A stretch of DNA of 64,000 nt, from IMG/VR virus record IMGVR_UViG_3300046542_000616. One strand, written 5' to 3'. Numbering within the stretch: position 1 is the first letter of the stretch; the number at the start of each line of letters is the position of its first letter. The position numbers and the translations under genes are program-made. Positions 41,003 through 59,971 of the stretch are shown one piece after another. Below the pieces are notes generated by a model that was given only the letters and a program-made list of their open reading frames with translations, had not been told where the DNA came from and searched no databases. The stretch is from a virus. Lineage: Duplodnaviria; Heunggongvirae; Uroviricota; Caudoviricetes.

Positions 41003-42142
41003 ATGACCGAGTTCACATCCAAGCACCGAGGCAAGCCGGCTCTCGACTTTCTGCGGGAAGCCAATCTTTACGCTCGCCTTGACGCGGCTACTGAAAGTGG
41101 TGAAATCAACGATATTTTGGAGAGTGCCAAGCACCTCGTTGCGCTTCTCAAGCACGGTGAAAATGAAACCTACTGGAAAAGAGAGCTGAAGGTCGTGCCA
41201 GATGATCTTTCGCTACTTAACACAGTGATGACAGCAATTGATGAAGATCGTCTTGATCAGGCTGGCAAAAAAGCACTGAAGGTGCTGTCTGCGACCATCA
41301 TCAATCTAACGCTTCCGCTGGTGGGCAGACACTTTAACGAGCGTCCAGCACCAAAGATTCCTCTTAACAGTATTTACAGCGGGAAAAACCCTGCTGCAGC
41401 AAACGTTATTGATGGTGAGCCTCCAGAGTTTGGCGTTTACCCCGCTGGTCAGTCATTTGATTCTGTTGTTACCGTGTTTGCAAACACGCATAAAGATTTC
41501 CTGATCAAAAGGCTCAATTACCCAGATGTTTACGCAAAACATCCTGACCCTGTTACGGAAACGCCGATTACGGCTATGGACTTACAGGGGCTTAGTTTTG
41601 ATGCCATCAGTGGCAACTACAAAATTTTCAACAAGTCGCCAGTTCAGCTGATCATGAGGTCGCCGAAAGCGTTCTCAGAGGTGACGAAAAAAGAGTTTGC
41701 CACCGCTTATTTAAAGGCCGCAGAGCAACCAATGGCCCTTGGCATGTTCGCTCTTGTTGCAATAAGCAAGCGACTCTCTGATCTCAGGAAGAAAACACCT
41801 GATGGGGTAGAAGAACTTTACCCGCTTACCGGCAAGTTTTATGGCTTGGAATCAAGTAATCGAGGAAATTTCCTCTTTTCGGCGCAGGAGTTCAGGGAAA
41901 ATGAGTTTGCCACGAATCCGTTCACTGTGGATGAGATCAAGGCCCTCCCATTTCTAATGGGTATGCATGAAGAGGTGTACGCCGAGGTTGAGCACAACCA
42001 TGCTATCCACGCTCCAGCGTGTGCTGCGAAGCTTAAGTCTGCTGGTTTCGAAAAACTGGCTGATTTTATCCAGGAAAACCATGCGGTAAAAACGGCCAAG
42101 CCAGCGCGTAAGTACGACACCGACTTGAGCCCAGGCATGTAA
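41003..42142 (+). CDS. P-family paralog 2 (380 aa), hypothetical; C-terminus ...TDLSPGM
   Basis: ATG at 41003; FSEVTKKEFATAYLKAAEQPMALGMF and FTVDEIKALPFLMGMHEEVYAEVEHNHAIHAPACAAKLKSAGF blocks shared with 42325..43116 (~60% identity) and 36793..37833. Confidence 0.7.
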   Translation: MTEFTSKHRGKPALDFLREANLYARLDAATESGEINDILESAKHLVALLKHGENETYWKRELKVVPDDLSLLNTVMTAIDEDRLDQAGKKALKVLSATIINLTLPLVGRHFNERPAPKIPLNSIYSGKNPAAANVIDGEPPEFGVYPAGQSFDSVVTVFANTHKDFLIKRLNYPDVYAKHPDPVTETPITAMDLQGLSFDAISGNYKIFNKSPVQLIMRSPKAFSEVTKKEFATAYLKAAEQPMALGMFALVAISKRLSDLRKKTPDGVEELYPLTGKFYGLESSNRGNFLFSAQEFRENEFATNPFTVDEIKALPFLMGMHEEVYAEVEHNHAIHAPACAAKLKSAGFEKLADFIQENHAVKTAKPARKYDTDLSPGM

Positions 42143-42182: not shown

Positions 42183-42287
42183 GCTGATGGTGCGTGCGGC
42201 AAGACTCTCAGTGCTTGTGCCATAATCCTAAGATATCGCAGTCCCGTCGAGCGTTGAATGCCTTGTCGATTGCGTGGCCAATAGCTC

Positions 42288-42324
42288 AATCCCTATACTG
42301 GGTAAAGACCAAGGAGATTTTCGC
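42288..42324 (+). promoter_or_regulatory. conserved promoter/leader of P-family gene 3 (CCCTATACTG ... CCAAGGAGATTTTCGCATG)
   Basis: See 36757..36792. Confidence 0.45.
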
Positions 42325-43116
42325 ATGACCGAGTTAAAAAGCAAGCCACTCATCGAACCAGGCGCAATTTACCTGGGCGTTAATGCATCTGGGCAGGCCC
42401 CTCAAAATGGTGAGCCGCCAGAGTTCGGTATTTATCCAATCGGCGAGCGTTTTGTTTCCGTTGTTAGTGAATACATCGCTGATCATCGGAATGGCAAGGG
42501 TCGTACTACTTTGAATGCTGCCCTCATTCAGGATATTGGGCGTCCTATAACGAAAGATGACTTAAATGGATTGTCCCTGGACGCAGTCAGTGGCTCTCAC
42601 GATCTATTCAAGAGCAATTTTATGGCTGCCTTCATGAATTCGAAGTCAGGCTTCTCTGAGGTTTCCAAGCAAGAGTTTGCTACTGCTTACCTCAAGGCTG
42701 CGGAGCAACCAGCAGCGCTCGGCATGTTCTCCTACGTCGCTTTGACTTCAGCTATTGCATTGAGCAAAGACAAAACAAACGACGCTATGACGATTGTCGG
42801 AAAAATGGCAAGCAAGATTTGGAACTCTGATGAGTACCGTGGTGAATTCCAGCTTTCTGCCAAGGAATTCACGGTGAATGAATTCGCGGCGAATCCATTC
42901 ACCGTGGAAGAGATCAGGGCACTGCCATTCGTGCTTGGTCAGTTCAAAGAAATCTACGCAGAGGTCGAGCATAATCACGCGATTCATGCCCAGGCCTGTG
43001 TCGGTAAGCTACGATCTGCCGGCTATGATCTTGCTGCTGATGTCATCCTGGAGAATTTTCCAGAGAAGGCTGCCAAACCGGTGCGTAAGCACGATGAGCC
43101 AGGTTTCGGTATGTAA
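42325..43116 (+). CDS. P-family paralog 3 (264 aa), hypothetical; C-terminus ...EPGFGM
   Basis: ATG at 42325 (ORF 42274.. is an upstream extension); lacks the N-terminal ~110 aa of paralog 2 but is otherwise collinear. Confidence 0.7.
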   Translation: MTELKSKPLIEPGAIYLGVNASGQAPQNGEPPEFGIYPIGERFVSVVSEYIADHRNGKGRTTLNAALIQDIGRPITKDDLNGLSLDAVSGSHDLFKSNFMAAFMNSKSGFSEVSKQEFATAYLKAAEQPAALGMFSYVALTSAIALSKDKTNDAMTIVGKMASKIWNSDEYRGEFQLSAKEFTVNEFAANPFTVEEIRALPFVLGQFKEIYAEVEHNHAIHAQACVGKLRSAGYDLAADVILENFPEKAAKPVRKHDEPGFGM

Positions 43117-46898: not shown

Positions 46899-47294
46899 TT
46901 ATAGGCCCAGTTCACCCTCAAGCAGCCGGCCTTTGACCTGATTGGCGATGTCCTTGGGAAGGTACTGGTGGGCACCGAATCCAAAGATCTCGATCACGAT
47001 CACCCCCTTTTCATTCGTATTGGCGGCTTGCGCCACTTGAATGACGCCGCGAAATTTAAGGATTTCGCTGATCATGAGCATCTGATCCGTGTTGCCAACG
47101 GGTTTGTTCATTTGGTATGCCTCGAGCCACAAATCATCGCTCAAATACTCCCTGGAGTTATAGGCTCCCCATCTCCTGACAAGGATATTCGCCGTATGAC
47201 CTGACGTTGCGTGCTCAACGTCTTTGGCAAGGTTGTTTCCCCAAGTTCTACAGAGATATTTCTTAGACCTGGCTCTTGGCATGTTTTTTGGCAC
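46899..47294 (-). CDS. family-B short paralog (131 aa) with shared C-terminal tail ...RLLEGELGL
   Basis: ORF; C-term VIVIEIFGFGAHQYLPKDIANQVKGRLLEGELGL matches the minus-array family. Confidence 0.65.
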   Translation of the reverse strand: MPKNMPRARSKKYLCRTWGNNLAKDVEHATSGHTANILVRRWGAYNSREYLSDDLWLEAYQMNKPVGNTDQMLMISEILKFRGVIQVAQAANTNEKGVIVIEIFGFGAHQYLPKDIANQVKGRLLEGELGL

Positions 47295-47351
47295 TATGTG
47301 ACTGTCCTATCGAGAATGGTAGCTCTTGCTGGCGCAAGAAATCGAAGGCGA

Positions 47352-47930
47352 TTATAGGCCAAGCGCCTCTTCCAGATATCCGCCCTGGAACTGCTTGGCG
47401 ATGTCCCTGCTGAGGAGCCTGGTGGCTTTGATCCCAAAGATATCCACAAATCCTCTGTAGTCCTTCTCAGTTGTCACCTCGGCGGCAATGGCCTCTGCAC
47501 CATGGCTCTCCAGTAGCAGTCGAAGCTGTTCCTTGCAGCGTCCCTTGTAGTCATTGTAGACGCCTACCCAGGCATACAGGCTTAACCACGGGAGTGGCAC
47601 CTCGTGCTGATTCGCCACTTCATGACCAAATACCTCGATGAAGATCATGTGGTCAGTGTCATTGTTCAGCTCTCGGGCTACTTCCGCTGGATCCTTTAAG
47701 GCCAGAAAAATGCGGTACAGGAAGTACTCTGGCGAGCCGTTCTGCAACTCAGTTCCGAAGTAGAGGAGGCTCTTTGTCGACATAACTTCCACCGCTGGGT
47801 GGTTTCCCTTCAGGATGTCACTCAGAACAAACGCACGGCGTTCCTCGTCGCTCCATTGAGCGTAGCCTTCGGGCTGGTCGATTCGCTTTCGCTCAAATTT
47901 GTTGAGCTCGCGCACGGTCATCTCATTCAT
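47352..47930 (-). CDS. family-B paralog (192 aa) with shared C-terminal tail
   Basis: ORF; ...FVDIFGIKATRLLSRDIAKQFQGGYLEEALGL*; ATGA overlap with upstream gene. Confidence 0.8.
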   Translation of the reverse strand: MNEMTVRELNKFERKRIDQPEGYAQWSDEERRAFVLSDILKGNHPAVEVMSTKSLLYFGTELQNGSPEYFLYRIFLALKDPAEVARELNNDTDHMIFIEVFGHEVANQHEVPLPWLSLYAWVGVYNDYKGRCKEQLRLLLESHGAEAIAAEVTTEKDYRGFVDIFGIKATRLLSRDIAKQFQGGYLEEALGL

Positions 47931-48496
47931 AGTCCTAGCTGATCCTCTAGATGAGTGCCCTTGTATTTGTTGGCGATGGCCTTATCCAAACGCACTATGG
48001 CTTTCGTGCCGAAAATCTCGACGAAGCTCCCGAACGACTTGGCATCATTGATCAGGCCCGCCACGGATTCTGACCCATGGCTTTCAAGCAGGCGACCGAT
48101 CTCTTTTTTGCAGGTGCCTTTGAAATCTGCGTACATCTCAACCTTGTTGTAGAGCGAAAACCAGAAGTCGACGGTCTTGAATTCTCTGACTCGCTCGAAG
48201 CCAAATGACTCGATAAACATCATGTAGTCCACGTCATCGCCAAGGTAGTGAACCACCGCCGCAGGATCATGGCGCTCCAGCAGTATTCGAACGAGGTAGT
48301 AGTCTGGCTCTCCGTTGTCCAGGATGATGGACATCGCCAGCAGGTCTTTTGCCTTGATGGCTTCCAGCTCCGGGCCGATGTGACTGGAAGCCACAAACGC
48401 ACGGCGTTCAGCCACCGAGAGTTTGTAATATGTGTCAGTCGGTCGAATGCGGATTTCCTCGAGTGCCGCCAGCTGAGTTTCGGTCAAATACTTCAT
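47927..48496 (-). CDS. family-B paralog (189 aa)
   Basis: ORF; FVEIFGTKAIVRLDKAIANKYKGTHLEDQLGL*; overlaps both neighbours by 4 bp. Confidence 0.8.
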   Translation of the reverse strand: MKYLTETQLAALEEIRIRPTDTYYKLSVAERRAFVASSHIGPELEAIKAKDLLAMSIILDNGEPDYYLVRILLERHDPAAVVHYLGDDVDYMMFIESFGFERVREFKTVDFWFSLYNKVEMYADFKGTCKKEIGRLLESHGSESVAGLINDAKSFGSFVEIFGTKAIVRLDKAIANKYKGTHLEDQLGL

Positions 48497-49071
48497 AGTC
48501 CGAGCCCATCCTCAAGGTGCTTCCCTTTAAATTTTCGGGCTATGTCTTTGGGCACGTACTGGATGGCCTTAAGCCCGAACACTTCGACGAATATCTTGCT
48601 CTGTTGCTCGTTTGTTACCTCGGCACCAACGGATTCGGCGCCTCGTTCTTCGAGCATGGCCTTGACGCGTGTCTGGTTAATCGCCATGTCATCGCGGTAA
48701 TACTGGATGATTTCATGCAGATCCAGCAATTTGGCGTTACTCATGTGCGCCTTACCCACATCAAGGCCAAAGACGTCAAAAAACAACTCGAAGTCCATAT
48801 CATCTTCGAGATGAGGCACCACCTTGGCTGGCTCATGGCGACCAACAAGCTGTCTGAAGATGAAAAACTCAGGGCTTTCGCCCCCGGTTTGTCCCGCAAA
48901 GAAAATCAGGTCTTCGATGGCCATGGATTCTTCGGTGGCGTACCTGCCTGTCGCAAGCTCCTGGGCGATGAAGGCACGGCATTCTTCGGTGCTCATGTCC
49001 TGGTAGTTTTCAGGGGTGATGACGATGGGGAATTCGTAGTCTTCGCGCTGGCGCCGGCTCATCTTTTTCAT
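48493..49071 (-). CDS. family-B paralog (192 aa)
   Basis: ORF; FVEVFGLKAIQYVPKDIARKFKGKHLEDGLGL*. Confidence 0.8.
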   Translation of the reverse strand: MKKMSRRQREDYEFPIVITPENYQDMSTEECRAFIAQELATGRYATEESMAIEDLIFFAGQTGGESPEFFIFRQLVGRHEPAKVVPHLEDDMDFELFFDVFGLDVGKAHMSNAKLLDLHEIIQYYRDDMAINQTRVKAMLEERGAESVGAEVTNEQQSKIFVEVFGLKAIQYVPKDIARKFKGKHLEDGLGL

Positions 49072-49649
49072 AGACCCATTAACTCCTCAAGGTGATTGCC
49101 TTTAAATTGGGTTGCCAGGTCTTTGCTCACAAACTGGACGGACTTCAGGCCAAAGAGTTTGACGAAACTCTGGCATGTGTCTTTTGTTTTGACCTGGGCG
49201 GCGACGTCTTCTATCCCTCGCCCAATGAGCGTGTGGCCGATCTTGGTCAAGCTGATGTGTTCGCTCTCGCCCTGGCCTTCGAGGTAGGTGAAAACTTGAA
49301 GCAATTGCACAGTACTCAATAGCGTGTTGGCCCGATCATTCCCATACAGCTCAAAAAAAATAACCGTGTCGAGTTCGCTCTCTACGTGCCGCGCCACTTC
49401 GACCGGGTCTTTACGAACCATGATCAATCGGTAGAGGAAGTGTTCCGGTGACTCCTGCCAGGCCGAGTAGAAACAGCAGTGCAGCAGATCGTGAATGGCA
49501 AGCGATTCCTCGAAGGCGTGGTTGCCTGTCTGAAGCTGTTGATCGACAAAAGCGCGGCGTTCGGCTGTGCTCATGACCTCGTAGCCGACAGGAGCGGTGA
49601 TCCGGATTTTATTCAAGACCGAAAAGTTGATTGGCGGCAAGTCAGTCAT
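49068..49649 (-). CDS. family-B paralog (193 aa)
   Basis: ORF; FVKLFGLKSVQFVSKDLATQFKGNHLEELMGL*. Confidence 0.8.
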   Translation of the reverse strand: MTDLPPINFSVLNKIRITAPVGYEVMSTAERRAFVDQQLQTGNHAFEESLAIHDLLHCCFYSAWQESPEHFLYRLIMVRKDPVEVARHVESELDTVIFFELYGNDRANTLLSTVQLLQVFTYLEGQGESEHISLTKIGHTLIGRGIEDVAAQVKTKDTCQSFVKLFGLKSVQFVSKDLATQFKGNHLEELMGL

Positions 49650-50245
49650 AAGCCGATGGCCTCCTCAAGCTGTCTTCCCTTGGCGTGGTTGGCGATGTGC
49701 TTGGGGAGGTGAATGTTTGACTCGACTCCGAAGATATCGAGGAATAGGGCGCCCCCTGCCTTGCACCATATAGACTCAGCAACACGCTCTGCGCCCCTGT
49801 TCTGGAGCAGTAACTTCACCTGCTGCGTGGTTGTGGCTTCTTCGCGGTGAAAGGTTACTAGAGAAAACGCCTTCAGCCAGATTTCGTCACTGATGTAGGG
49901 CAGGGATGTCTCAAGTCCATACGACTCCAGAAAGAACCTGGCGTCGTGCTCATCTCTGATCTTATCAGCAGCGAGTGACGGCTCAACGTCAGCCAGTAGC
50001 ATCCGGTACATGAAATAGTTCGGATGCCATGGCAGAACCCTCAGGCCCATTTGGAAGATGGAAGCAATCGAGACTTCATCTGCCTTTCGATACTTGCCTG
50101 AATCCAGCTCTTTACGCACCCAGGTACGACGATCTTCAAAGCTGAAGCTTGGAAAGTCCTTCGGGTAATTCGTGATCTCCCGGAGTGGGAAACGCTCTGG
50201 TTCGTGGCTGGTCATTGGCATCTCGATCTGCCGTGTGGTCGACAT
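49646..50245 (-). CDS. family-B paralog (199 aa)
   Basis: ORF; FLDIFGVESNIHLPKHIANHAKGRQLEEAIGL*. Confidence 0.8.
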   Translation of the reverse strand: MSTTRQIEMPMTSHEPERFPLREITNYPKDFPSFSFEDRRTWVRKELDSGKYRKADEVSIASIFQMGLRVLPWHPNYFMYRMLLADVEPSLAADKIRDEHDARFFLESYGLETSLPYISDEIWLKAFSLVTFHREEATTTQQVKLLLQNRGAERVAESIWCKAGGALFLDIFGVESNIHLPKHIANHAKGRQLEEAIGL

Positions 50246-50314
50246 GTCTTCATGGTATGCGAGGAGCGCAGCATGGCGCAGGTTTTTAAGCCTGGTTCAC
50301 CTACGCTTTTAGCT

Positions 50315-50719
50315 TCAAAGTCCCAGTGCATCCTCAAGCATCATGCCTTTGACCTTGCGAAGAAGCACCGGCCCGACAAGATTGGCTCGATCCATGCCGA
50401 CCATTACCAGGAAATGCTTGGCCTGGATGGTGACGTCTTCTTTAGCTTGCGCCAGCTCTCTGCCGGCCTTCTCAAAACCGTATGTCTCCAGTAGCCGAGC
50501 GACCAGCATCCACATGTAGGAGCCGGGTTTCGATCTGCAGACTTTCAGCCACCTGAGCTTTTCGATGGTGTTCCTTTTTTCGACGCCGAGCTCCTCGTGG
50601 TTTTGAATGACGCGCTCGATCAAGCCGGATTTTGCTGCATGACAGAGTTCGTGCCAGATGATGCGTCCTTCGAGAATGTCATCGGCCACAGTAGGTTGGT
50701 TTTTCTTCACAGTGTTCAT
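50315..50719 (-). CDS. family-B short paralog (134 aa)
   Basis: ORF; FLVMVGMDRANLVGPVLLRKVKGMMLEDALGL*; ~133-aa short architecture. Confidence 0.7.
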   Translation of the reverse strand: MNTVKKNQPTVADDILEGRIIWHELCHAAKSGLIERVIQNHEELGVEKRNTIEKLRWLKVCRSKPGSYMWMLVARLLETYGFEKAGRELAQAKEDVTIQAKHFLVMVGMDRANLVGPVLLRKVKGMMLEDALGL

Positions 50720-51114
50720 AGTCCCAGGGCATCTTCCAGAAATTTTCCTTTGACCTTTTTTGCCAAGTCAGGGGAAAGCAGAGAAAGCGCCCTGAATCCA
50801 AAAGCCTCGATGAAGCTTCTAGCGTGCCAATCCATTGTCAAATGCTTGGCGGCCTCTTCAGGATCAAATCTTTGCAGCAAGGATATGAACATGAAGTGCA
50901 GGGGGGAAGTAGCAGAACTGTAGACGCAGCAAAAGAAAATAACATCTTTCGCGCCAAGACTTTTTTCTCGCTCAAAATCCCCAAGCGCCATTTCATTCAA
51001 AACCCATTCCTTGCGCGCTGTGTAGCTGCGCTGGTGGAAGTCTGCAGGCTTGTTCGGAAACGAATTACCGACGTAAACCCTGCCTTCAATGCTCTCAGTA
51101 TGGTCTAGGTGCAT
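50716..51114 (-). CDS. family-B short paralog (~133 aa; ORF extends to 51231 but the upstream part overlaps the previous gene)
   Basis: Likely start at the Met of MHLDHTESIEG...; FIEAFGFRALSLLSPDLAKKVKGKFLEDALGL*; N-terminus collinear with the N-terminus of 51146..51727. Confidence 0.6.
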   Translation of the reverse strand: MHLDHTESIEGRVYVGNSFPNKPADFHQRSYTARKEWVLNEMALGDFEREKSLGAKDVIFFCCVYSSATSPLHFMFISLLQRFDPEEAAKHLTMDWHARSFIEAFGFRALSLLSPDLAKKVKGKFLEDALGL

Positions 51115-51145
51115 TTTCTGTTTTTCCAGTGTCTGTTCACGGCGA

Positions 51146-51727
51146 TCACAGGCCAAGCTCCCCTTCCAAAAGGTGTCCTTTGACCTGTTTTGCCAGGTCG
51201 GGTTGCAGTAAAGAAAGCGCTTTGATCCCAAAAATCTCGGCGAATAGGACGCCTGCTTCCTTGTTGTGGATCAAAAGAGAGATGTGTTCCGCACCTCTGC
51301 TTTCAATAATCAATTTGAGTCCCTCTCTGATGCCCTGGTCAGGATCAGACAGTCCAGCTAGGTATAAGGCCTGCAGCCAAAGCTGGCTGGTGAAGAATGG
51401 TTTTGATCGCTCAAGGCCAAAGGCTTCAAAAAACAGCCTGGCCTGAAAGTCGTACTCAACATACTTGGCTGCATCTTCTGGCTCAAATCCCTGAAGCAAG
51501 AAGCGAAACATGAAGTAGTGAGGTGTGTATGTGCTATGGAAGCCACCAACGGACAGAATCTCTTCCAGGCCCATTTTCTTCTCAACACTGAAGTCGCCAT
51601 GGGCGATTTCGCACATAACCCAGTCCATACGATCTGCGTAGCTTCGTTCCGCGAAGTCTTCGGGCCGGTTTGGAAACGGATTGCGCGTGTAGAGAAAGTT
51701 GCTCTCAGTGAGGTCTGAATGGGCCAT
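51146..51727 (-). CDS. family-B paralog (193 aa)
   Basis: ORF; FAEIFGIKALSLLQPDLAKQVKGHLLEGELGL*. Confidence 0.8.
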   Translation of the reverse strand: MAHSDLTESNFLYTRNPFPNRPEDFAERSYADRMDWVMCEIAHGDFSVEKKMGLEEILSVGGFHSTYTPHYFMFRFLLQGFEPEDAAKYVEYDFQARLFFEAFGLERSKPFFTSQLWLQALYLAGLSDPDQGIREGLKLIIESRGAEHISLLIHNKEAGVLFAEIFGIKALSLLQPDLAKQVKGHLLEGELGL

Positions 51728-51860
51728 TTGGGTCGTCTATTCCGTGGCGTGGGGAATCTGGCTCGTAGACAGGCTCAGTGCCTTTCCTGACAAGGTCATT
51801 GGACAAGCGCCTTTTCCTGTACCTACAATGGGTGCATTAATACCACCTTTCGAGCGATAT

Positions 51861-52169
51861 ATGAAGAATGCCATGAGTTATCCAAAAGGTGATTTGCGCC
51901 GAATGCTGGCAGTGATCGCCGCTGTCGAAGCTATTCCTCAGGCCACTCTGGTGAAAATCGCGGCCCTGACTGGTCTTGATAAAAAGTCGGTAACCCACCA
52001 GATCGCCGAGGCTGGCAAGCAGGCGGAAGTGACCATTATCAAGGAAGGCCCGGTTTACACATTGAAGGATTGGGGGCCCTACATAAACCCTGTAGGAGCG
52101 CGAGATACATTGACAGGTGGAATAAATGCACCTACCATTAGCATACAAATTGACAGGGAAGGTGCCTGA
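51861..52169 (+). CDS. hypothetical protein, possibly HTH-containing (start uncertain within ORF 51699..52169)
   Basis: ORF on the opposite strand interrupting the minus array; LVKIAALTGLDKKSVTHQIAEAGK is HTH-like. Confidence 0.35.
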   Translation: MKNAMSYPKGDLRRMLAVIAAVEAIPQATLVKIAALTGLDKKSVTHQIAEAGKQAEVTIIKEGPVYTLKDWGPYINPVGARDTLTGGINAPTISIQIDREGA

Positions 52170-52194
52170 ACTGCGCCTTCTATCAGGAGTAGTG

Positions 52195-52437
52195 ATGACC
52201 GCTCAATTGAACCGCATGACGGCTAAGGCCTTTGCTGAAGCGAACCTTTGCGCGCTGGCTGCCGATGTCCTGGCCTGGCACAAAAACGGTGTCTTACCTG
52301 CTGAAAGCAAAATGAAAGAGCTGGCGACCCTGTGCGTACCTTTTGCCATCGAAGGTGATGAGTATCAGGAAGCAGAAAGGATTATCGTCTCTTTCGCACT
52401 GCAAAGTGCGGCTGGCTGTTTAACCGCCAACGGATGA
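52195..52437 (+). CDS. small hypothetical protein (~80 aa)
   Basis: ATG preceded by an AGGAG RBS within ORF 52126..52437. Confidence 0.4.
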   Translation: MTAQLNRMTAKAFAEANLCALAADVLAWHKNGVLPAESKMKELATLCVPFAIEGDEYQEAERIIVSFALQSAAGCLTANG

Positions 52438-52567
52438 TACCCCGGCACTCGACGCCTTTGGCTCGCTGTCAAAGGCTCATTGCATGGCTAGTGGTGTAGG
52501 CTTTGTACGGCAGCAGTAATTTATCAAATATTGACACTCCAGACCCATTTGCCACGAGGCACGACGC

Positions 52568-52834
52568 ATGCACTTCCCAGGATCACGTCTGTTCGAATTG
52601 AAAGACACTCATGGCCTTTCGCTGGAAAACGCTCTGGATCAGCTTCAGGCACGCGGCGTTGAGGTCGAATGGCCGAGCTTTGTCGAAGCCGCTCGCAAGG
52701 CCGGCTGGTACGACTTCAAGACCATTGATGCCATCGAGTTCGCCATGGCCGATGCCGGCGCCCCACGCAGCTATCAGGACGGCGTGAAGATTCGCCTGCG
52801 CCAGTACGTGCTTGAGCATCCGTTGCCCCTCTGA
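52568..52834 (+). CDS. small hypothetical protein (88 aa)
   Basis: ORF; acidic protein, no family recognised; antisense ORF 52583..52870 judged a shadow. Confidence 0.4.
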   Translation: MHFPGSRLFELKDTHGLSLENALDQLQARGVEVEWPSFVEAARKAGWYDFKTIDAIEFAMADAGAPRSYQDGVKIRLRQYVLEHPLPL

Positions 52835-52874
52835 TCTGTTTCTGCGGATCAGCAAGAGGCCAAAATGCATTAAG

Positions 52875-53516
52875 TCAAAGGCCCAGTGCGTTCTCCAGGT
52901 GGCGCGACTTGAACCGTCGTGCCATTTCCTGAGGTAGACCTTCTACTGCCTTCAGTCCAAAAATCTCGATAAAGCTTTGCCCCCAAAGAACGGACAAATT
53001 CATGCGCCGTATTTGTGAGGGCGTTCGGTTATGGATTTCTTCGCAGAGCTGTTCAGCGCCACGCTCGAGTAGGATGGTCTTGATCTGGTCATTGGTCTTA
53101 CCGCTTACGGATGACCTGAAACGAGAGTCTCGATAAGCGCACATCCAGCTATAGCTGGAGAGGAACGGCTTGGCACGCTCCAGTCCGTAGGATTCGAGAA
53201 AGAATCTGGCCTGGTTGGTTTTGATCTCCGGGGCCGCTACGGCGGGATCAATGTTTTCCATCTGTATTCGGTATTGATAGTACTCCCTCTCGGTGTCTTT
53301 GCGGTACGAGCCTCTATCAAGGATCTGACGAACCGAGATGTAATTCTCGTCAGGGTGCTTGCCCGCCAGCATTAGCTCGCGAATGTGCTGACGACGCTCG
53401 GCCATGCTCATCTCAAGAAAGAGCTTCGTGTCTTCTGGGCTATAGTCGATAATGGTCATGAAGTTTACCTGATCGCGAGTGTTGTTGGTTTGCAGTGAAT
53501 CTTGGTCAGATTTCAT
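52875..53516 (-). CDS. family-B paralog (213 aa, N-terminal extension)
   Basis: ORF; FIEIFGLKAVEGLPQEMARRFKSRHLENALGL*. Confidence 0.75.
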   Translation of the reverse strand: MKSDQDSLQTNNTRDQVNFMTIIDYSPEDTKLFLEMSMAERRQHIRELMLAGKHPDENYISVRQILDRGSYRKDTEREYYQYRIQMENIDPAVAAPEIKTNQARFFLESYGLERAKPFLSSYSWMCAYRDSRFRSSVSGKTNDQIKTILLERGAEQLCEEIHNRTPSQIRRMNLSVLWGQSFIEIFGLKAVEGLPQEMARRFKSRHLENALGL

Positions 53517-53917
53517 TACAGGCCAATTTGTTCTTCGAGGAGCCTTCCTTTGACCTGGTTGGCGAGATCCCTGCCCAACAAGGCGGCTTTCTCAATGCCA
53601 AAGGCCTCAATGAAGCATCGGGCCAGGCGCAAGTTACCCTCGGCCTCAGCAATCTCCCGACCCACCTGCTCAAGTCCTCGTAGCTCCACGGAGCGTACCG
53701 CGAACATGTAGAGGTAGGTGCCAGGCTGCCGGTCAGAGTCGATGATCGACCAGAGCATGTGCACTGAGCTCATGGCGTCGATGCCGGTATGCTCGCGATT
53801 GAGGATAGCTCGGTCAACCAAAGCTGATTTTTCTGCATGGCTCAGCGAATTCCAGACGATGCGCTTGGATTTGATGCTCCCAAGGACGGTGCCTTGGTAG
53901 GGGGCGGTTGAGTTCAT
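53516..53917 (-). CDS. family-B short paralog (133 aa)
   Basis: ORF; FIEAFGIEKAALLGRDLANQVKGRLLEEQIGL*. Confidence 0.7.
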   Translation of the reverse strand: MNSTAPYQGTVLGSIKSKRIVWNSLSHAEKSALVDRAILNREHTGIDAMSSVHMLWSIIDSDRQPGTYLYMFAVRSVELRGLEQVGREIAEAEGNLRLARCFIEAFGIEKAALLGRDLANQVKGRLLEEQIGL

Positions 53918-54489
53918 AGGCCTAGCTCATCCGAAAGATGCTTCCCCTTGACCTGATTGGCTAGATCAGCGGGCAGCAAAGTAAGCGATTTTACCCCAAA
54001 AATCTCGACAAAGTGTGCGCCATTTTCTCCGTCCTTTACAAATGGGAGCACCGCTTCTGCGCCACGACTTTTCAGTAGAAGCTTGATCATGTCCCTCGCT
54101 TTCATCTCTTCCGGTGTGAATGGGCACTCAGACATTGCCTTAAGCCAGAGGTCGGTCGATACATGGGGTGTTGCCCGCTCGAGTTCGTAGGCCAGGATAA
54201 AAAAGACCGCTCTGACTGCGCCTCTGATATGGGGCGCGGTCTGTTCTGGGTCAATCGCTGACAACAAAATGAGATACATGTAGTACTCTGGGCGCCATTC
54301 GTGAGAGGTGGCCCCGAAAGACAACACAAGCTGAAAGGGCAGGCTTTTGGCGACAGCATAATCCCCGGTAGCGAGCTCTTGCTCGACCCATGCGCGTCGT
54401 TCGTCACTGCTGAGGTCTGCGAAGTCCTTTGGTGGATTTTGAAAGTAATTCCGGTCGTACTTTTCGACGTCGTCCAGTGTAACGGCCAT
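53914..54489 (-). CDS. family-B paralog (191 aa)
   Basis: ORF; FVEIFGVKSLTLLPADLANQVKGKHLSDELGL*. Confidence 0.8.
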   Translation of the reverse strand: MAVTLDDVEKYDRNYFQNPPKDFADLSSDERRAWVEQELATGDYAVAKSLPFQLVLSFGATSHEWRPEYYMYLILLSAIDPEQTAPHIRGAVRAVFFILAYELERATPHVSTDLWLKAMSECPFTPEEMKARDMIKLLLKSRGAEAVLPFVKDGENGAHFVEIFGVKSLTLLPADLANQVKGKHLSDELGL

Positions 54490-55082
54490 TACAGCCCCAG
54501 CTCATCTTCAAGCTGCCGGCCTTTGAGCTTTGAGGCCAGGCCACTTTCGAGGTGACAAGCCGCACGAATACCAAAGATCTTGATGAAATGTCGCGCCATA
54601 GTGAGCCTCCCAGGTTCGCTGGAAGATCCAGTTTCTGGTGTTTTCCGGACTTCTTCGGCGATTTTTTCCGCCCCACGGCTTTTGAGTATCTCGACAATAC
54701 CTGGAGTATTATTGTGGTGATGATATGTTTGAAGCCAAAGACGGCTCGATAGGTAGGGCTTTGAGCGTTCCAAACCGTAGGCTTGCAGGAAGGTTCGGGC
54801 ATCGTCGGTGTATTTCATTTCCGCTGCCACGATGACGGGATCCAACCCCTCAATGGCCATACGGTAGCGGTAGTACGGCTGCTCCCAGTCCCCGTAGATA
54901 CTGCACAATGTCATCAGTTCGCGGACATCTTTCAGCTGGTCTTCTTTGAATCGCCCGTTGGCAATCTGGTCGCGAACATGGGCTATGCGCTGCTCCAAAG
55001 ACATCGCCACAAATGCTTCGGCTGCGAGCCGTTCATTGACGATTTCAGTATGTGCCTGGACGACTTCCTCGAATGTACTCAT
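54489..55082 (-). CDS. family-B paralog (197 aa)
   Basis: ORF; FIKIFGIRAACHLESGLASKLKGRQLEDELGL*. Confidence 0.8.
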   Translation of the reverse strand: MSTFEEVVQAHTEIVNERLAAEAFVAMSLEQRIAHVRDQIANGRFKEDQLKDVRELMTLCSIYGDWEQPYYRYRMAIEGLDPVIVAAEMKYTDDARTFLQAYGLERSKPYLSSRLWLQTYHHHNNTPGIVEILKSRGAEKIAEEVRKTPETGSSSEPGRLTMARHFIKIFGIRAACHLESGLASKLKGRQLEDELGL

Positions 55083-55098
55083 TGCTCACCTGTTTTGT

Positions 55099-55704
55099 TC
55101 ATAAGCCCAAGGCGTCTTCAAGATGCCGGGATTTTATCTTTTTGGCGAGTTCAGGGGGTAGGCCAGCAACGGCTTTTAGCCCAAAAAGCTCAATGAAGCT
55201 GTCAGCCCAGTCTTTCAAAATCAACATTCGCTCAATCTGCTCAGGGGATCTGCCTCTGATTTCTTCACAGACTTTTTCGACGCCCCTATCCTGAATCAAA
55301 AGGCCGATATCCCGTTTGGTCAGTGCGTTGTTTTCGAAACTACCGTTGGATTTTCGGTAGGCGGCGATCCACAGGTAGCTAGACAAATATGGCTTTGCGC
55401 GCTCCAGCCCATAGGAATCCATGAAAAATCGGGCATCGTTGACTGTGTCGATATATTTTACAGCTATCGCCGGGTCGGAGTTTTCCAGCTGGATGCGGTG
55501 CCCATAATATTCCCATTCGGCGTTAACAAACTTCTGGCCCTCGTGAAAAAGCTCATCGATAGGAAGGTTCTGATCGTATTTGTAGGTGCCGTCCGTAATG
55601 AGACCACGAACCCACTCTCGGCGCTCTGCGACAGTCATGTGCCAAAAAAGCTTCTGAGGTTCTGTTTGAAGGCAAAGGCCTTTGGGAGGAGTGGTTTCGG
55701 TCAT
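55099..55704 (-). CDS. family-B paralog (201 aa)
   Basis: ORF; FIELFGLKAVAGLPPELAKKIKSRHLEDALGL*. Confidence 0.8.
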   Translation of the reverse strand: MTETTPPKGLCLQTEPQKLFWHMTVAERREWVRGLITDGTYKYDQNLPIDELFHEGQKFVNAEWEYYGHRIQLENSDPAIAVKYIDTVNDARFFMDSYGLERAKPYLSSYLWIAAYRKSNGSFENNALTKRDIGLLIQDRGVEKVCEEIRGRSPEQIERMLILKDWADSFIELFGLKAVAGLPPELAKKIKSRHLEDALGL

Positions 55705-55758
55705 AAGGTCTACCTGGCTGCCGGTAAGATGATTGGGCGCGGTTCGGGTGCCTGTGTG

Positions 55759-56130
55759 TCACATGCCCAGGGCGTCTTCCAGAAGCATCCCTTTGGCCTG
55801 CCAGAAGAGGTCGGAGGGCAGAAGGGATTCGGCAGCCTTGATTCCGAATATATCGGTGAACATCCGTGCGCCATGTTTATTGGTCACTTTAAGCGCGACA
55901 TCGTCGGCGGTATGCCAGCGCTGCAGTATTCCGGATGCCTGCCGGTATTGCGCACTTCCTGGCTTGAAAAAACCACTGAGCAGAAGACCTAAGATGTGGT
56001 CTTGTTCGATACCTGGCTGAGGCTTCAATTGCCCGGTGGCCAGGGAGTGGAGAACGCTCGTTCGCTCAGCCGGACTCAGATCGCCGAACGGGATTTCGCC
56101 GTTCAATATGCCTTTTTCTACCAGGTTCAT
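55759..56130 (-). CDS. family-B short paralog (123 aa), first gene of the minus array; ends ...LLEDALGM
   Basis: ORF; FTDIFGIKAAESLLPSDLFWQAKGMLLEDALGM*. Confidence 0.7.
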   Translation of the reverse strand: MNLVEKGILNGEIPFGDLSPAERTSVLHSLATGQLKPQPGIEQDHILGLLLSGFFKPGSAQYRQASGILQRWHTADDVALKVTNKHGARMFTDIFGIKAAESLLPSDLFWQAKGMLLEDALGM

Positions 56131-56270
56131 GTGCCGCCCTCATCGTTCAGAACAGTATGGCAGTGCCGAATGGGCGCCACCAAGCACCAGGCTAACCAAG
56201 ATGAAAGCCGCTTGATAGGTGATGACTAATATTGTTAGGCTTCACGCCTTATCTATGAGGGATCGACACC
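56131..56270. promoter_or_regulatory. divergent promoter region between the minus array and the HTH regulator gene
   Basis: 140-bp intergenic region between divergent starts (56130 minus, 56271 plus); contains TTGATA and AT-rich -10-like hexamers; no confident promoter call. Confidence 0.3.
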
Positions 56271-56663
56271 ATGCTAGCAGGCAAGCAGCTGGGCGAGGCT
56301 ATCGAGAAGGCACGGATTTCCAAAGGCATCAGCAAGAAGCAACTGGCTGACGAATTTGGTGTTAAGCCGCCCTCGGTTAAGGGATTGGTTCGTGATGGTC
56401 GCATCGACAAAAAAAGACTTGTGATGATGCACTATTTCGGTGATGTCGTCGGGCCTGAGCATTGGGTATTTGGCGACATCATGGATGCCGAAATGCGGGC
56501 CCACCCCCTGATCCTTCAGATTGCGAAAGGAATCGAAGATGGTCGACTGACCGATTCGGATAATGAACTACCCGCACCTGAATCGAAGATTGCAGATGGG
56601 GTATCCTCTACGCTTCGATGGGGGTTGTTCGCCAACGGCGACAACTCCCTCCACGTAGCCTAA
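56271..56663 (+). CDS. XRE/Cro-like HTH transcriptional regulator, 3' end replaced by IS sequence
   Basis: QLGEAIEKARISKGISKKQLADEFGVKPPSVKGLVRDGRIDKKRL = HTH_XRE-like; paralog of 58623..59072; the last ~30 codons run through the IS RE hairpin (56571..56601). Confidence 0.6.
   Translation: MLAGKQLGEAIEKARISKGISKKQLADEFGVKPPSVKGLVRDGRIDKKRLVMMHYFGDVVGPEHWVFGDIMDAEMRAHPLILQIAKGIEDGRLTDSDNELPAPESKIADGVSSTLRWGLFANGDNSLHVA
56571..56601. repeat. IS subterminal hairpin (tnpB-proximal end; RE-like) CCCGCACCTGAATCGAAGATTGCAGATGGGG
   Basis: 29/31 identical in direct orientation to 58437..58467; imperfect palindrome CACCTG...CAGATG. Confidence 0.6.
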
Positions 56664-56675: not shown

Positions 56676-57962
56676 CTACCCGTGTTTCTTTCGGAATGCG
56701 ACTTTTTTTGGCGCCTTTTTGGCCTTCCAGTCCTGAGCGAGAACGTAGTTCACGCCGCGACTCTGAAGCACCAAACTCGCATTAAAGTCCGCATCGCATG
56801 CAAACCCACAACCGGTACACAAAAACCGCTTTCCAGCACGGTTTTCGGATGACGTGTGTCCGCATTGGGAGCACGTCTGCGAGCTGAAATGGGCCGGCAC
56901 CTTGATGCACACCTTGTTCATTCTCGCGGCTTTGTAGTGGGTGAAAAGCGTAATATTGCCCCAGCAACTCTGCAAAATACTGCGGTTCAGGCCAGATTTT
57001 GCGGCTGCTCCGTTAGGCAGGTATTGACCCGTTTCGTCCTGTTTTGGCTTGGCGCGCCGAGTCATGTTGGCTATTTTCAGATCTTCGAAGGTGAAGACCT
57101 GGATAGCCGGGTTATTCACCAGTTGTCTCGACACCTGGTGCGCAAAATTCTTGCGGACTTCGGCCTGTTGGTTCGAGATCACACTGATGGATAATTTGGT
57201 TTTACTTCGGCGCTGAGATCCGATTTTCTGCCTGGCCAACTTGCGCTGTAGGTGTTTTTTCCGCTGTTCGCGGCGCTTGTTTTTGATGATTGCTGGAGTG
57301 GCCATGTGGTACACCTGGCCGTCACTGCCGTGCAGCATTTCTCGCACGCCACGGTCGCCAGCCCAGGTCTTGGCCATCAGCTGTTCGGCGCTGAGGTGGC
57401 TCAGATCGCTCAGGAGGTCTTCTTGTGAGCGCGGCTCGACCAGTTTAGGGTCTTCGAAGCTAAAGCTCACGTACCAGCGATTAGCCTTGCGGCTAATCAC
57501 CAGTGTTTTCGGGGTTTTGAACTCGCGATGGGCGCCGAACTTGAGGTCACCGACCTTGTGCCGGAACGTGCCGATGTTCAGCACGCCTTGCTCATCAAAA
57601 CGGAACAGTTCTGAGGTCAGCAACACGCTGTCACGACGACCTTTTTTCTTGTGCGCGGGCTTGAAGGCAAGGCCTTTGCGGTAGCGCTGCCAGGCAGTCA
57701 TGAACTGAAAGGATGAATTTCGCAATAATTGCGAGGGAACATCCGACAAATACGGTGTCAGTTCATCGTCCTTGAACTGAGAATAGGCCTGATCAATCTC
57801 GGGCATTGGGTCTGCGCCCAATGCCTTGCGCCGAAAGGTCTGAAAGTACTCCATTTCAGCGACTTTGGCGTTGTAGATCACTCGTGCGCAGCCAATCCAC
57901 TGCGCCAGCGTTTTCTGCTGGTCGGGTGTGGGGTAGGCGCGGCAACGAATTCCGTTTATCAT
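56676..57962 (-). CDS. tnpB: TnpB (IS605 OrfB family RNA-guided nuclease-like transposase accessory protein)
   Basis: MINGIRCRAYPTPDQQKTL N-terminus; AGDRGV, TFEDLKI (RuvC-II), zinc finger CSQCGH...CTGCG, DADFNASLVL (RuvC-III); ORF 56676..57980 with likely start at 57962. Confidence 0.85.
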   Translation of the reverse strand: MINGIRCRAYPTPDQQKTLAQWIGCARVIYNAKVAEMEYFQTFRRKALGADPMPEIDQAYSQFKDDELTPYLSDVPSQLLRNSSFQFMTAWQRYRKGLAFKPAHKKKGRRDSVLLTSELFRFDEQGVLNIGTFRHKVGDLKFGAHREFKTPKTLVISRKANRWYVSFSFEDPKLVEPRSQEDLLSDLSHLSAEQLMAKTWAGDRGVREMLHGSDGQVYHMATPAIIKNKRREQRKKHLQRKLARQKIGSQRRSKTKLSISVISNQQAEVRKNFAHQVSRQLVNNPAIQVFTFEDLKIANMTRRAKPKQDETGQYLPNGAAAKSGLNRSILQSCWGNITLFTHYKAARMNKVCIKVPAHFSSQTCSQCGHTSSENRAGKRFLCTGCGFACDADFNASLVLQSRGVNYVLAQDWKAKKAPKKVAFRKKHG

Positions 57963-58010
57963 GGTCGATAACGTACACACCTACAGATTAATTGTCAACT
58001 GGAAGGTCAT

Positions 58011-58436
58011 ATGAAATCAGCGTCGAATGCCGTATATGAAATACAGCTGCATATTGTTTTTGTGGTGAAGTACCGGCGCAAGGTACTGACCGAAGCGATG
58101 CTATCTTCGGTAGCTCAGGTGCTGAAAAACACCTTGGAATCGTGGCGTTGCGAACTGATTGAGGTGGGCGGCGAAGCCGACCACCTGCACCTGCTGATTG
58201 GTATCCACCCAGCGCTGAACATCGCTGACTTGATCGGTAATCTGAAGTCGATCAGTTCGCGTCATTTGCGCAAAGACTATGAAATCGAGATAAAAAAATA
58301 CTTGTGGAAAGATGCCTTCTGGCACAGAGCCTACTACGTCGGTAGCGTTGGAAAAACCACCCTCGAAACGATCAAAAACTACGTGCAAAATCAGGGTGAA
58401 ACCGACAAGCCTGGGCGCCCGCGCCGACAACCGTGA
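58011..58436 (+). CDS. tnpA: IS200-type Y1 HUH transposase TnpA
   Basis: 141 aa; HLHLLI (HUH motif) and catalytic Tyr in RAYYVGSVG...NYVQNQ, typical of IS200/IS608 TnpA. Confidence 0.85.
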   Translation: MKSASNAVYEIQLHIVFVVKYRRKVLTEAMLSSVAQVLKNTLESWRCELIEVGGEADHLHLLIGIHPALNIADLIGNLKSISSRHLRKDYEIEIKKYLWKDAFWHRAYYVGSVGKTTLETIKNYVQNQGETDKPGRPRRQP

Positions 58437-58622: not shown

Positions 58623-59072
58623 ATGTTGAGTGGGCGAGCACTAGGGGATGCATTGAGAGCAGCTATGAGAGCCAAGAATGTCACGTGGAGTGACATGGCC
58701 AGGCATCTCAAAGTGAGCGATCAAACCCTGTTGAATTGGATTGATACGGGTAAAATCAGGAGTACTGCGATCTTCCAGCTGAGAAGCTTTTTTGATGGGT
58801 ATGTGCCAGATGATCATTGGGAAACCAGTCCTCAAGACAGAGCGGGGGCTGTGTCCTCCGAGACTATAGCCGTAGCAGAAATCAATTCTTCACTGACTGG
58901 ACTCATCAGCCAACTGAGCGACGACTTCAAATCAGGCCTGATCGATGAAGCGGACATCAGTGCCTTGGCAGCGATGGCCAGACACCTGACTACGCGAAGA
59001 AATGTTACCGACATCGGCGCCCTGGCGGCGGTGGCCAATCACCTGATCACGCGCAGTAATGTTAATGCCTAG
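58623..59072 (+). CDS. XRE/Cro-like HTH regulator (paralog of 56271..56663)
   Basis: LSGRALGDALRAAMRAKNVTWSDMARHLKVSDQTLLNWIDTGKIRSTAIFQLRSFFDGYVPDDHWE aligns with the N-terminus of the 56271 gene. Confidence 0.55.
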   Translation: MLSGRALGDALRAAMRAKNVTWSDMARHLKVSDQTLLNWIDTGKIRSTAIFQLRSFFDGYVPDDHWETSPQDRAGAVSSETIAVAEINSSLTGLISQLSDDFKSGLIDEADISALAAMARHLTTRRNVTDIGALAAVANHLITRSNVNA

Positions 59073-59212: not shown

Positions 59213-59971
59213 TCAGCTCTTGATGGTGAGCATCTCAATGACCTTGAGGGCCTGCAGGCGCACTTGGCCGTAGTCCATGTTGACGTCCGGATGGAAACCT
59301 ACGCGAAACGCGAGCCCCAGCTTTTCATCCTTGAAGATGTATTCGCAGGCCTCTGGGGCGGTGTCCTCTTGATGGTAGGTCTTGCATACCTTGTAGGGCG
59401 CCATCTTGCCAGTATCCGGGTCGAGGCCGTAGGTGTACTCATGGCCGTAGTAATAGCCGTCGTTGACCTTGCCGAGTGTCCGGCTTACCAGCGACACGGA
59501 CACTTCCTGATTCGTCTGCCTGGACAGTTCTCGCTGAATGATGTCGCCGTCGATGGCCTTGCGGGCGCCCACTTCATACGGACGCTTGATGGCGCCTATC
59601 GTCAAATAGGTGGACTGCATGCCGGAGAGGGCCATGGTCTTGGCGGGCGACAGGTTCTGAATGTTCAGGTAGAGCCCGGCAATAATTAGAGGATGATCGC
59701 ATCCTTCCCCGGCTACGTCGGCGTCAAACACGGCGCCAGCGGAGGTGTATTCGATGGGGATGCGCAAGTGGTGCCCGGCCAGCACGCCGCAAATCGGCTG
59801 GGGCTCAGCGGGTTTGACTTCAGCGGGTTTGATTTCAACGGGCTTGACCGGCTGCTGCGCCACGGCGACAGGTTTTTTCACGGGGGCAGTGGGTTTCTTC
59901 GGTTCTGCGATGGCGACAGGTACTGCGAATAGCGAAAACATGATCGCGTAGGCGAGCGGAATCAATTTCAC
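59213..59971 (-). CDS. secreted hypothetical protein (252 aa) with signal peptide and Pro/Lys-rich low-complexity linker
   Basis: MKLIPLAYAIMFSLFAVPVAIA signal; PKKPTAPVKKPVAVAQQPVKPVEIKPAEVKPAEPQP linker; overlapping plus ORF 59144..59689 judged a shadow. Confidence 0.6.
   Translation of the reverse strand: MKLIPLAYAIMFSLFAVPVAIAEPKKPTAPVKKPVAVAQQPVKPVEIKPAEVKPAEPQPICGVLAGHHLRIPIEYTSAGAVFDADVAGEGCDHPLIIAGLYLNIQNLSPAKTMALSGMQSTYLTIGAIKRPYEVGARKAIDGDIIQRELSRQTNQEVSVSLVSRTLGKVNDGYYYGHEYTYGLDPDTGKMAPYKVCKTYHQEDTAPEACEYIFKDEKLGLAFRVGFHPDVNMDYGQVRLQALKVIEMLTIKS

Follow-up and report, generated by a model that had tools for sequence, protein, structure and literature searches.

A near-invariant C-terminal tail shared by two tandem gene arrays of an apparent Pseudomonas-type megaplasmid is a candidate recognition tag

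The Bep proteins of Bartonella and the X-Tfe proteins of Xanthomonas are type IV secretion substrates in which a shared C-terminal domain and tail serve recruitment, and the Bep genes lie in tandem. In Legionella, C-terminal effector signals are bound by the receptor DotM, and transport requires a hydrophobic last residue (PMC5802825). Conjugative type IV systems also deliver plasmid-encoded proteins to recipients (PMC8406263), and transfer of the Pseudomonas megaplasmid pMPPla107 needs a type IV secretion system (PMC4105467). Here, we analysed a 64,000-nucleotide stretch of DNA (the window; IMG/VR record IMGVR_UViG_3300046542_000616, filed under Caudoviricetes) that carries two tandem arrays of paralogous genes, family A on the plus strand (positions 1-30059) and family B on the minus strand (46899-56130). 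The products of both arrays end in a nearly invariant C-terminal tail, which is the subject of this report.

In all 15 family B proteins, the C-terminus reads (K)G-x-x-L-E-(D/E)-x-(L/I/M)-G-(L/M)-stop, with Gly at position -2 and Leu at -7 in 15/15 and Glu at -6 in 14/15. Over the last 32 residues of a MAFFT alignment of the family, Gly and Leu were invariant and F, F, K, E and L nearly so. When both families were considered, position -1 was Leu, Met or Ile and position -3 was Leu, Ile or Met in 47/47 proteins. Of the window's 240 long stop-to-stop segments, 39 matched a regular expression describing the tail; with 10 B genes added by eye (His, Gln, Tyr or Phe at -8), the number of tail-bearing open reading frames (ORFs) rose to 49, comprising 33 of family A, 15 of family B and one encoding a 226-amino-acid (aa) protein. 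The same expression had no match in 80 control loci from other genomes, and a related expression had none among 6,959 ORFs in 79 of these loci, so that the signal greatly exceeds chance. The initial annotation's view that the tail is real and common to both families was confirmed. Gly at -2 was encoded by GGC, GGA, GGT and GGG, and Leu at -1, -3 and -7 by five to six codons. As every synonymous codon was used at the invariant positions, selection has acted on the peptide rather than on the DNA, and what is conserved in the tail is its amino-acid sequence and not its nucleotide sequence.

The tail was also found on unrelated bodies. The 226-aa protein (38957-39637, plus strand; also called as a gene in the metagenome assembly L001) ends ...GTLLSDQLGV and is encoded immediately upstream of an ATP-grasp gene. 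This protein aligned with the A and B profiles over its last 23 residues only, and a 527-aa protein at the head of the A array over its last 13 only. On the cultured megaplasmid pBASL58, 23 ORFs end in [DE]-[LI]-G-[LM] between 460 and 577 kb (117 kb), and none does so in the first 50 kb. At positions not used for their selection, these ORFs had Leu at -7 in 22/23 and Glu at -6 in 13/23. The whole set reaches ~600 aa; among the 14 proteins that were compared (107-552 aa), only three pairs were detectably related, and none of the 14 matched the A or B profile. One 50-kb stretch of pMPPla107 has ~49 annotated genes, of which 14 end ...x-D-L-G-L (or DLGM, DLGI, DMGL or TLGM). The earlier idea of a portable tail was thus borne out by the 226-aa protein, by the 527-aa head protein and a second, 540-aa one, and by dozens of unrelated proteins of cultured megaplasmids. 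The motif differs slightly between the two sources, the acidic residue lying one position earlier in the window (LE[DE]xLGL) than on the cultured plasmids (LExDLGL). Homologues of family A on the megaplasmid of Pseudomonas sp. FeN3W (L096 14974-15852; L098 3898-4752) end ...SIDLEI and ...HYDFEM, not ...LGL, and the C-terminal tip may vary with plasmid lineage.

A tail-only profile search of a set of 5.8 billion proteins was uninformative (43 candidates, 2 fragments). Searching metagenome contigs for the tail as a DNA pattern gave three matches, all of which lay in ORFs of 19-40 codons and were rejected as chance. In the literature, we found no paper mentioning the motif. Because the tail is invariant, always at the extreme C-terminus and carried on unrelated bodies of 100-600 aa, it is probably an undescribed address or recognition tag read by one shared plasmid-encoded partner. 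The window is the most extreme known expansion of genes tagged in this manner.

The sequence comparisons place the window on an uncultured replicon of ~1.1-1.3 Mb that is related to the Pseudomonas megaplasmids of the pMPPla107/pBASL58 family. This assignment follows from several features. The Rep3 initiator was 57% identical to RepB of the FeN3W megaplasmid, 53% to that of P. silesiensis pPL1 and 48% to that of pMPPla107, all three being Pseudomonas megaplasmids of ~0.9-1.2 Mb. The DUF808 protein was 76% identical to the product of a gene on a 971-kb P. fluorescens megaplasmid, and the order DUF808, small gene, two DotM_C-like genes is kept in pPL1 (L097 8045-9357). The best plasmid matches of the Lon-type AAA+ protein and the R2K ATP-grasp protein, both described below, were on pBASL58, and single-copy homologues of family A occurred on the FeN3W megaplasmid (E 5e-38 and 3e-32). 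Array proteins were found on metagenomic contigs of 1.28 and 1.13 Mb, and the order Rep3, CNNM protein, RNase R, A array holds in three metagenomic lineages. Both a shared initiator and backbone synteny, the marks by which membership of the pMPPla107 family was judged, were therefore present. With the cultured members, the window has in common Rep3, DUF808, the DotM_C-like pair, the R2K ATP-grasp operon, the Lon-type AAA+ protein and many hypothetical proteins ending ...DLGL; unlike them, its replicon is known from metagenomes only and carries huge tandem expansions of two tail-bearing families. A phage origin was rejected, as there were no PHROG matches, the contig exceeds 1 Mb and the initiator is Rep3. 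Scans for tRNAs and Rfam families gave no match.

The tail may act as a peptide by which the plasmid's I-type (MPF_I, Dot/Icm-like) type IV secretion system recognises its substrates, a function to which we assign a probability of about one in three. The reader would be the coupling complex of this system, and mating would be the occasion on which tagged proteins pass into the recipient bacterium or another target cell. The two arrays would accordingly represent a lineage-specific expansion of translocated helical-repeat proteins, each of which would bind a different target; expression would be from a long operon with translational coupling, controlled by a divergent helix-turn-helix (HTH) repressor. 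In favour of such a function, pBASL58 and pMPPla107 are typed as MPF_I in PLSDB and carry PilV shufflon genes, and the window encodes two DotM_C-like proteins (34997-36133, plus strand; 34997-35479, 160 aa, and 35507-36133, 208 aa), whose synteny with DUF808 recurs in pPL1. The family B proteins, which have no transmembrane segment and an acidic isoelectric point (pI), would suit a cytoplasmic substrate that bypasses the Sec pathway. A hydrophobic residue at the extreme C-terminus, as in Dot/Icm substrates, was present in 47/47 A and B proteins.

Several observations weigh against secretion. The tail does not conform to the Legionella E-block definition, as the median number of Glu residues at positions -17 to -10 was 0 (maximum 1), and the last 30 residues, which an E-block requires to be acidic, had a median pI of 5.5, with only 30% of values below 5. 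The DotM_C-like genes are backbone genes that also occur where the arrays are absent, and their products resemble only a fragment of DotM, the C-terminal cytoplasmic domain: Pfam DotM_C (PF23127) scored 30.3 bits for the first protein (cut-off 27) and 22.6 for the second, with coverage of profile positions ~80-158 only, and NCBIfam DotM/IcmP reached E 2e-4 and 20 bits against a cut-off of 230. A phmmer search of PDB with the DotM_C-like protein found no match. Known type IV signals are loose rather than near-invariant heptapeptides, and effectors rarely lie in operons of >30 overlapping genes. In addition, the short forms of family B add hardly anything to the shared domain, no type IV secretion genes were located for the replicon to which the window belongs, and rival readers (the Lon-type AAA+ protein, SspB and the R2K ATP-grasp protein) are encoded as near to the tail-bearing genes or nearer.

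Legionella E-block signals, like the tail, are C-terminal and uncleaved, with acidic residues preceding a hydrophobic last residue; the tail has a sharply defined motif that departs from the E-block pattern, and the DotM_C-like proteins here are short, soluble fragments. The Bep proteins (BID domain plus charged tail) and X-Tfe proteins (XVIPCD) likewise combine a ~100-aa alpha-helical C-terminal domain with a short tail in paralogous or diverse proteins. However, BID and XVIPCD had no sequence match here (Pfam, nothing at E<=1), and their secretion systems are of type IVA, whereas the system here would be I-type (IVB). The present arrays further differ in having 15 to >37 genes, some members that consist only of the shared domain, and a near-invariant heptapeptide tail.

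The genes near the arrays and among the tail-bearing genes of relatives suggest other readers. A 655-aa AAA+ protein (60274-62241, plus strand) with a Lon-type ATPase module matched PDB Lon at E 1e-12 and is a conserved neighbour of the B array, which it adjoins in the window and in L102/L103. The tail could be an ssrA-like degradation or adaptor tag, although we regard this as doubtful: a plasmid AAA+ machine, either this protein or host ClpXP working with a plasmid SspB, would read the free ...DLGL and keep the proteins short-lived, which could limit them to the period just after plasmid entry. On pBASL58, the gene directly after the AAA+ homologue (L104 7851-10701) encodes a 421-aa protein ending ...VLEDDLGL, and a gene for SspB, the ClpXP adaptor (486734-487135; L106 9735-10136), lies among tail-bearing genes and encodes a ClpX-binding-like C-terminus, GRPALSVVVSN. 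The motif is strictly C-terminal, like ssrA (...LAA-COOH); on the other hand, the ssrA tag is added co-translationally, whereas here, many genes encode the tail themselves. The AAA+ protein has no protease domain, destroying the products of about a quarter of a region's genes would be costly, and SspB may be incidental, megaplasmids carrying many duplicated housekeeping genes (tuf, dnaE and others). To our knowledge, LGL-COOH is not a degron of ClpX or Lon, and LGL has not been described as a degron or a ligase substrate. Recognition of a short peptide with a free carboxy-terminus is common to ssrA/SspB/ClpX and to ligation by RimK or tubulin-tyrosine ligase, and SspB, AAA+ and ATP-grasp proteins are all encoded among tail genes. 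It is similarly unlikely, in our estimate, that the tail marks substrates of an R2K-clade ATP-grasp ligase, which would activate the C-terminal carboxylate and then extend the protein by further residues, in the manner of RimK and tubulin-tyrosine ligase, or join it to an amine. Such a gene lies at 39668-40882 (plus strand; Pfam R2K_2/R2K_3; 40.7% identical to a pBASL58 gene). In pMPPla107 and pBASL58, it forms a conserved three-gene operon with a tail gene on each side (L108 13872-18320; L107 19116-22836; gaps of 11-60 bp); in the window version (38957-42142), the upstream 226-aa gene has the tail and the downstream 414-aa gene ends ...DLSPGM. The R2K.2 and R2K.3 enzymes are predicted protein-directed peptide ligases with unknown targets (PMC4431377), and a C-terminal ligase would need a strictly terminal motif. 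However, tail genes are so dense (~20-28% of genes) that the flanking may be chance repeated through shared synteny, the nearest ATP-grasp gene is 6 kb from the B array, and a single ligase for dozens of substrates would be without precedent.

We also consider it improbable that the tail carries no signal at all, being instead the best-conserved end of the structure, or a generic docking helix, in a helical-repeat domain that has been spread by domain shuffling within the plasmid family. The arrays would then encode binders of varied targets, for example in polyimmunity-like immunity or anti-defence. Families A and B do have ~100 aa in common beyond the tail, their folds are alpha-solenoid-like (structural neighbours ARM, HEAT, PPR and DUF4116 proteins, at low scores), and the paralogues are old and individually retained, as in immunity arrays. 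Yet the 527-aa and 226-aa proteins share 13-23 residues only, the bodies on pBASL58 are mostly unrelated, and a structural element would not stop at an identical residue in >90 proteins of 100-630 aa. There were no PADLOC matches and no toxin genes, and toxin, Rhs, contact-dependent inhibition and immunity domains were absent among ~45 scanned ORFs of the window, a set spanning the arrays and the greater part of their flanks. A role at the nucleic-acid level, either as a Shine-Dalgarno sequence with ATGA coupling or as a cassette recombination site, is essentially excluded. The GAG-GA(N) codons at -6 and -5 do sit 11-14 nt ahead of the next ATG, and a last Leu codon of TTA or CTA creates the ATGA overlap, so that these codons double as ribosome-binding site and overlap for the next gene. 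Nevertheless, all synonymous codons occur at the invariant positions, half of the Glu codons are GAA, and the tail is kept in the last array genes and in single genes on cultured plasmids.

Overall, the type IV secretion reading ranks first, at the probability given above, and the AAA+ route, the ligase and the absence of a signal follow as roughly equal, unlikely alternatives. A broader proposition, which we hold at somewhat less than even odds, is that ...L-E-x-D-L-G-L-COOH is an unrecognised address tag of a ~1-Mb conjugative megaplasmid family, marking up to a quarter of genes in places and read by a dedicated plasmid machine, be it an I-type type IV coupling complex, an unfoldase of the AAA+ class or a C-terminus-modifying R2K ATP-grasp ligase. 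If so, the 15- and >37-gene arrays would be the largest known tandem substrate expansion, encoding helical-repeat binders injected into, or acting on, new hosts.

We compared families A and B beyond the tail. The window contains 33 tail-bearing A genes, with products of ~290-300 aa; these include one gene cut at the left edge and one internally deleted member of 162 aa. In the latter (11052-11540), an in-frame internal deletion has left the N-terminal ~85 aa and the C-terminal ~80 aa. The array runs five genes further left, where it is headed by the tail-bearing 527-aa and 540-aa proteins (L090 2344-5626) and adjoins RNase R, the CNNM protein and the Rep3 initiator. Median identity was 38% between the products of adjacent A genes and 24% across the whole family. 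A 1.35-kb gap in the array (13404-14758) holds no detectable family A remnant. Directly after the array, a 456-aa protein (30112-31482, minus strand) had no family match and contains four ~100-aa repeats (PYF.V.GD.T.YYDA.EAA.AF ... VAGVN..GEAFLNKLDFQ).

The initial annotation described family B as carrying the same tail on different bodies. The shared tail held, but the bodies proved not to be different, as the B core and the last ~100 residues of the 290-aa family A are homologous. In profile-profile alignment with hhalign, B columns 14-113, which span the N-terminal block and an internal pseudo-tail, aligned with A columns 176-284 at 94.4% probability (E 8e-8), and the short form of B5/B9 type (W05/W09) aligned end to end with the last 113 A columns, tail included (E 1e-4). 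From these alignments, we infer that family B is a free-standing version of the family A C-terminal domain. Homology to family A over the full length, which the annotation had named as evidence against its view of the array, is nearly but not fully reached, because family A has an extra N-terminal DUF4116-like domain of ~180 aa.

The long forms of family B do not contain an inserted middle, as had been suggested, but a unit of ~35-50 aa that has been duplicated internally (hhalign E 1.4e-5), the two copies reading 'y-R-i-l-l..DP..va..i....a.F.E.yG.E' and 'i..lL..RGaE.va..i.....F.eIFG.K'. Likewise, the notion that short members are long forms without the middle holds for B8 but not for the class, in which there are at least three architectures. 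B8 (50716-51114) arose by deletion of the stretch between the two internal repeat units of a B7-like gene; its N-terminus and tail matched those of B7 (51146-51727) with 47.6% identity over 105 aa, in agreement with the earlier comparison of these two genes. B1, B5 and B9 consist of the N-terminal block and one unit, and B15 is truncated N-terminally and has lost that block (46899-47294).

AlphaFold2 models of B6 (pLDDT 81.8) and A1 (pLDDT 93.3) were confident and all-alpha. In both, the last helix ends three residues short of the C-terminus (at residue 210 in B6), leaving the terminal L-G-L free and non-helical. Families A and B are one superfamily of soluble, acidic, all-alpha proteins. The best structural neighbours were ARM, HEAT, PPR and DUF4116 proteins, with low scores, and the best Foldseek matches in BFVD were DUF4116 proteins at E>=0.009. 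The N-terminal half of family A has a real but weak resemblance to DUF4116 (PF13475): in Pfam, 3/30 members matched without reaching the gathering score (best E 0.019), hhalign against one DUF4116 protein gave a probability of 26%, and the A profile matched a DUF4116-annotated FeN3W megaplasmid protein at E 1.3e-3. The likeness thus concerns the N-terminal half of family A, with all scores under the family threshold, and family B is without any DUF4116 signal. We know of no function for DUF4116 and of no C-terminal tag on its members.

Family B was found where the initial annotation had placed it, as an array of 15 minus-strand paralogues, six at 52875-56130 and nine at 46899-51727. Its two size classes (10 long members of 189-213 aa and 5 short ones of 123-134 aa) and the frequent ATGA overlaps were also as described. 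Six junctions were 4-bp ATGA overlaps, two were 1-bp TAATG overlaps and the other gaps measured 16-69 bp, apart from a gap of 1147 bp at the site of three small plus-strand genes. The array begins with B1 (55759-56130, 123 aa), a short form made of the N-terminal block, one unit and the tail ...LLEDALGM; its orthologues R01 and S01 were 84% and 47% identical to it, and the first gene of the array was a short form of 122-123 aa in all three lineages seen (the window, L006 and L088). Next come the long members B2 (55099-55704, 201 aa, tail ...HLEDALGL), B3 (54489-55082, 197 aa, ...QLEDELGL) and B4 (53914-54489, 191 aa, ...HLSDELGL), the short B5 (53516-53917, 133 aa), which aligned end to end with the A domain, and the long, modelled B6 (52875-53516, 213 aa). 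Beyond the gap lie the long B7 (193 aa); the short B8 (132 aa), in which a B7-like N-terminus is fused straight to the tail; and B9 (50315-50719, 134 aa), a short member of B5 type. The long members B10 (49646-50245, 199 aa), B11 (49068-49649, 193 aa), B12 (48493-49071, 192 aa, with an 88% identical orthologue), B13 (47927-48496, 189 aa) and B14 (47352-47930, 192 aa; P0001) follow, and the array ends with B15, which has 131 aa when read from a GTG start and 127 aa in databases, and corresponds to a long form minus the N-terminal block.

The three small plus-strand genes splitting the array, which the initial annotation had also noted, lie at 51699-52834 (approximately 51861-52169, 52126-52437 or shorter, and 52568-52834, according to gene callers). 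They have no assigned family and are kept in relatives, at different positions there. The product of the 88-aa gene at 52568-52834 weakly resembled part of alanyl-tRNA synthetase, below the threshold (Pfam tRNA-synt_2c, E 3e-4), and the gene lies elsewhere within the array in the sister species.

In the alignment of the 15 paralogues, pairwise identity was 14-50% (median 27%). The annotation had allowed that frameshifts or low coding potential would undermine these genes. No frameshift was found in the 15 ORFs, which are intact, and the ratio of nonsynonymous to synonymous substitution rates (dN/dS) against orthologues in a sister metagenomic species (L006/L007) was 0.11-0.34, similar to that of the flanking DUF1289 and 118-aa genes; this range covers 13 of the 14 pairs compared, dS being saturated in the fourteenth. 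Other metagenome assemblies (L001-L003) contained the same array, with nucleotide identities of 100% and 99.1%, and the sister species, at 81-88% nucleotide identity, had a 19-gene version. Most B paralogues of the window had a clear orthologue there (53-88% amino-acid identity) with the order largely kept, and the best matches of B10 and B11 reached only 39% and 45%, a paralogue-level closeness. Between the two arrays, one block has moved and some genes have been gained or lost. Since orthologues have been kept in the sister species under dN/dS values of 0.11-0.34, the B copies are under purifying selection, old, individually maintained and not redundant.

The family B proteins were acidic to neutral (median pI 6.0) and contained no membrane-spanning hydrophobic segment or signal peptide. 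They matched no family in Pfam, NCBIfam, PHROGs or PADLOC at E<=1, save for noise far under the cut-off, and had no match in PDB. Relatives are exceedingly rare: a word-indexed search of the 5.8 billion proteins returned 14, all metagenomic; those with a named source were annotated as 'hypothetical', except for one evident mis-annotation. An exhaustive HMMER scan of 1.84 billion cluster representatives, a library that holds no protein names, gave 33 matches, one of them spurious: the 807-aa repeat protein P0041 was dismissed as a chance match to an S-x-AE-K/R motif. A family B query had no match in 185,579 species genomes, nor in IMG/VR viral contigs and JGI metagenome contigs, and the family was not found in ~330 kb sampled from cultured plasmids or in PLSDB by tblastn. 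Family B belongs to an undescribed superfamily, and the array is not an ordinary one. In a distant lineage (L089, ENA ERZ27284652, 102-3107), the gene for a VWA-like (DUF2201) protein, in which a long region is rich in Gln and Gly, precedes a B-like gene of 140 aa, which is overlapped by a 286-aa gene ending ...LCEDLGM.

The promoter end of the B array was said to abut a divergent HTH regulator and an IS200/IS605 element, and both are present. The regulator (56271-56663, plus strand; Pfam HTH_3, RacR-like N-terminus) kept its adjacency in one further lineage, L088, where an HTH_3 gene abuts the B array at the same position, but not in L102, where a 248-aa same-strand gene comes first beside the array instead. 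The IS200/IS605 element (56676-58436; TnpB 56676-57980, minus strand; TnpA 58011-58436, plus strand) sits between this gene and a second RacR-like HTH paralogue (58623-59072, plus strand). As no such element occupies the corresponding spot in L088, it looks recently inserted, and it is not part of the system. Further upstream, a 252-aa gene on the array strand (59213-59971, minus strand) is a conserved neighbour; in L088 and L102, its position is taken by a 248-aa gene. Simple scans for promoters, terminators and repeats, run on the array and on the intergenic region 56131-56270, gave nothing above shuffled expectation and no operator-like repeat.

A third family of paralogues was noted at 36562-37833, 40898-42142 and 42274-43116 (plus strand; 423, 414 and 280 aa), two of whose genes follow the ATP-grasp gene. 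Its members share ...EFATAYLKAAEQP.ALGMF... and end K-P-x-R-K-(Y/H)-D-...-G-M, a C-terminus that is different and also conserved.

A megaplasmid of the pMPPla107 family brings ~1 Mb of genes, most of them 'hypothetical', into its Pseudomonas host and alters many host traits. One C-terminal heptapeptide on dozens of unrelated proteins offers a handle on these genes and a candidate substrate set, and the family is experimentally tractable, as pMPPla107 and pBASL58 are cultured and conjugative. If the tail is a type IVB signal, it would provide the first crisp consensus for an I-type conjugation system and would point to large-scale protein delivery in mating; a ligase tag would supply the protein targets long sought for R2K ATP-grasp enzymes, and a degradation tag would represent a new plasmid-borne proteolysis code. 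The arrays illustrate how a substrate family may expand to ~50 translationally coupled genes.

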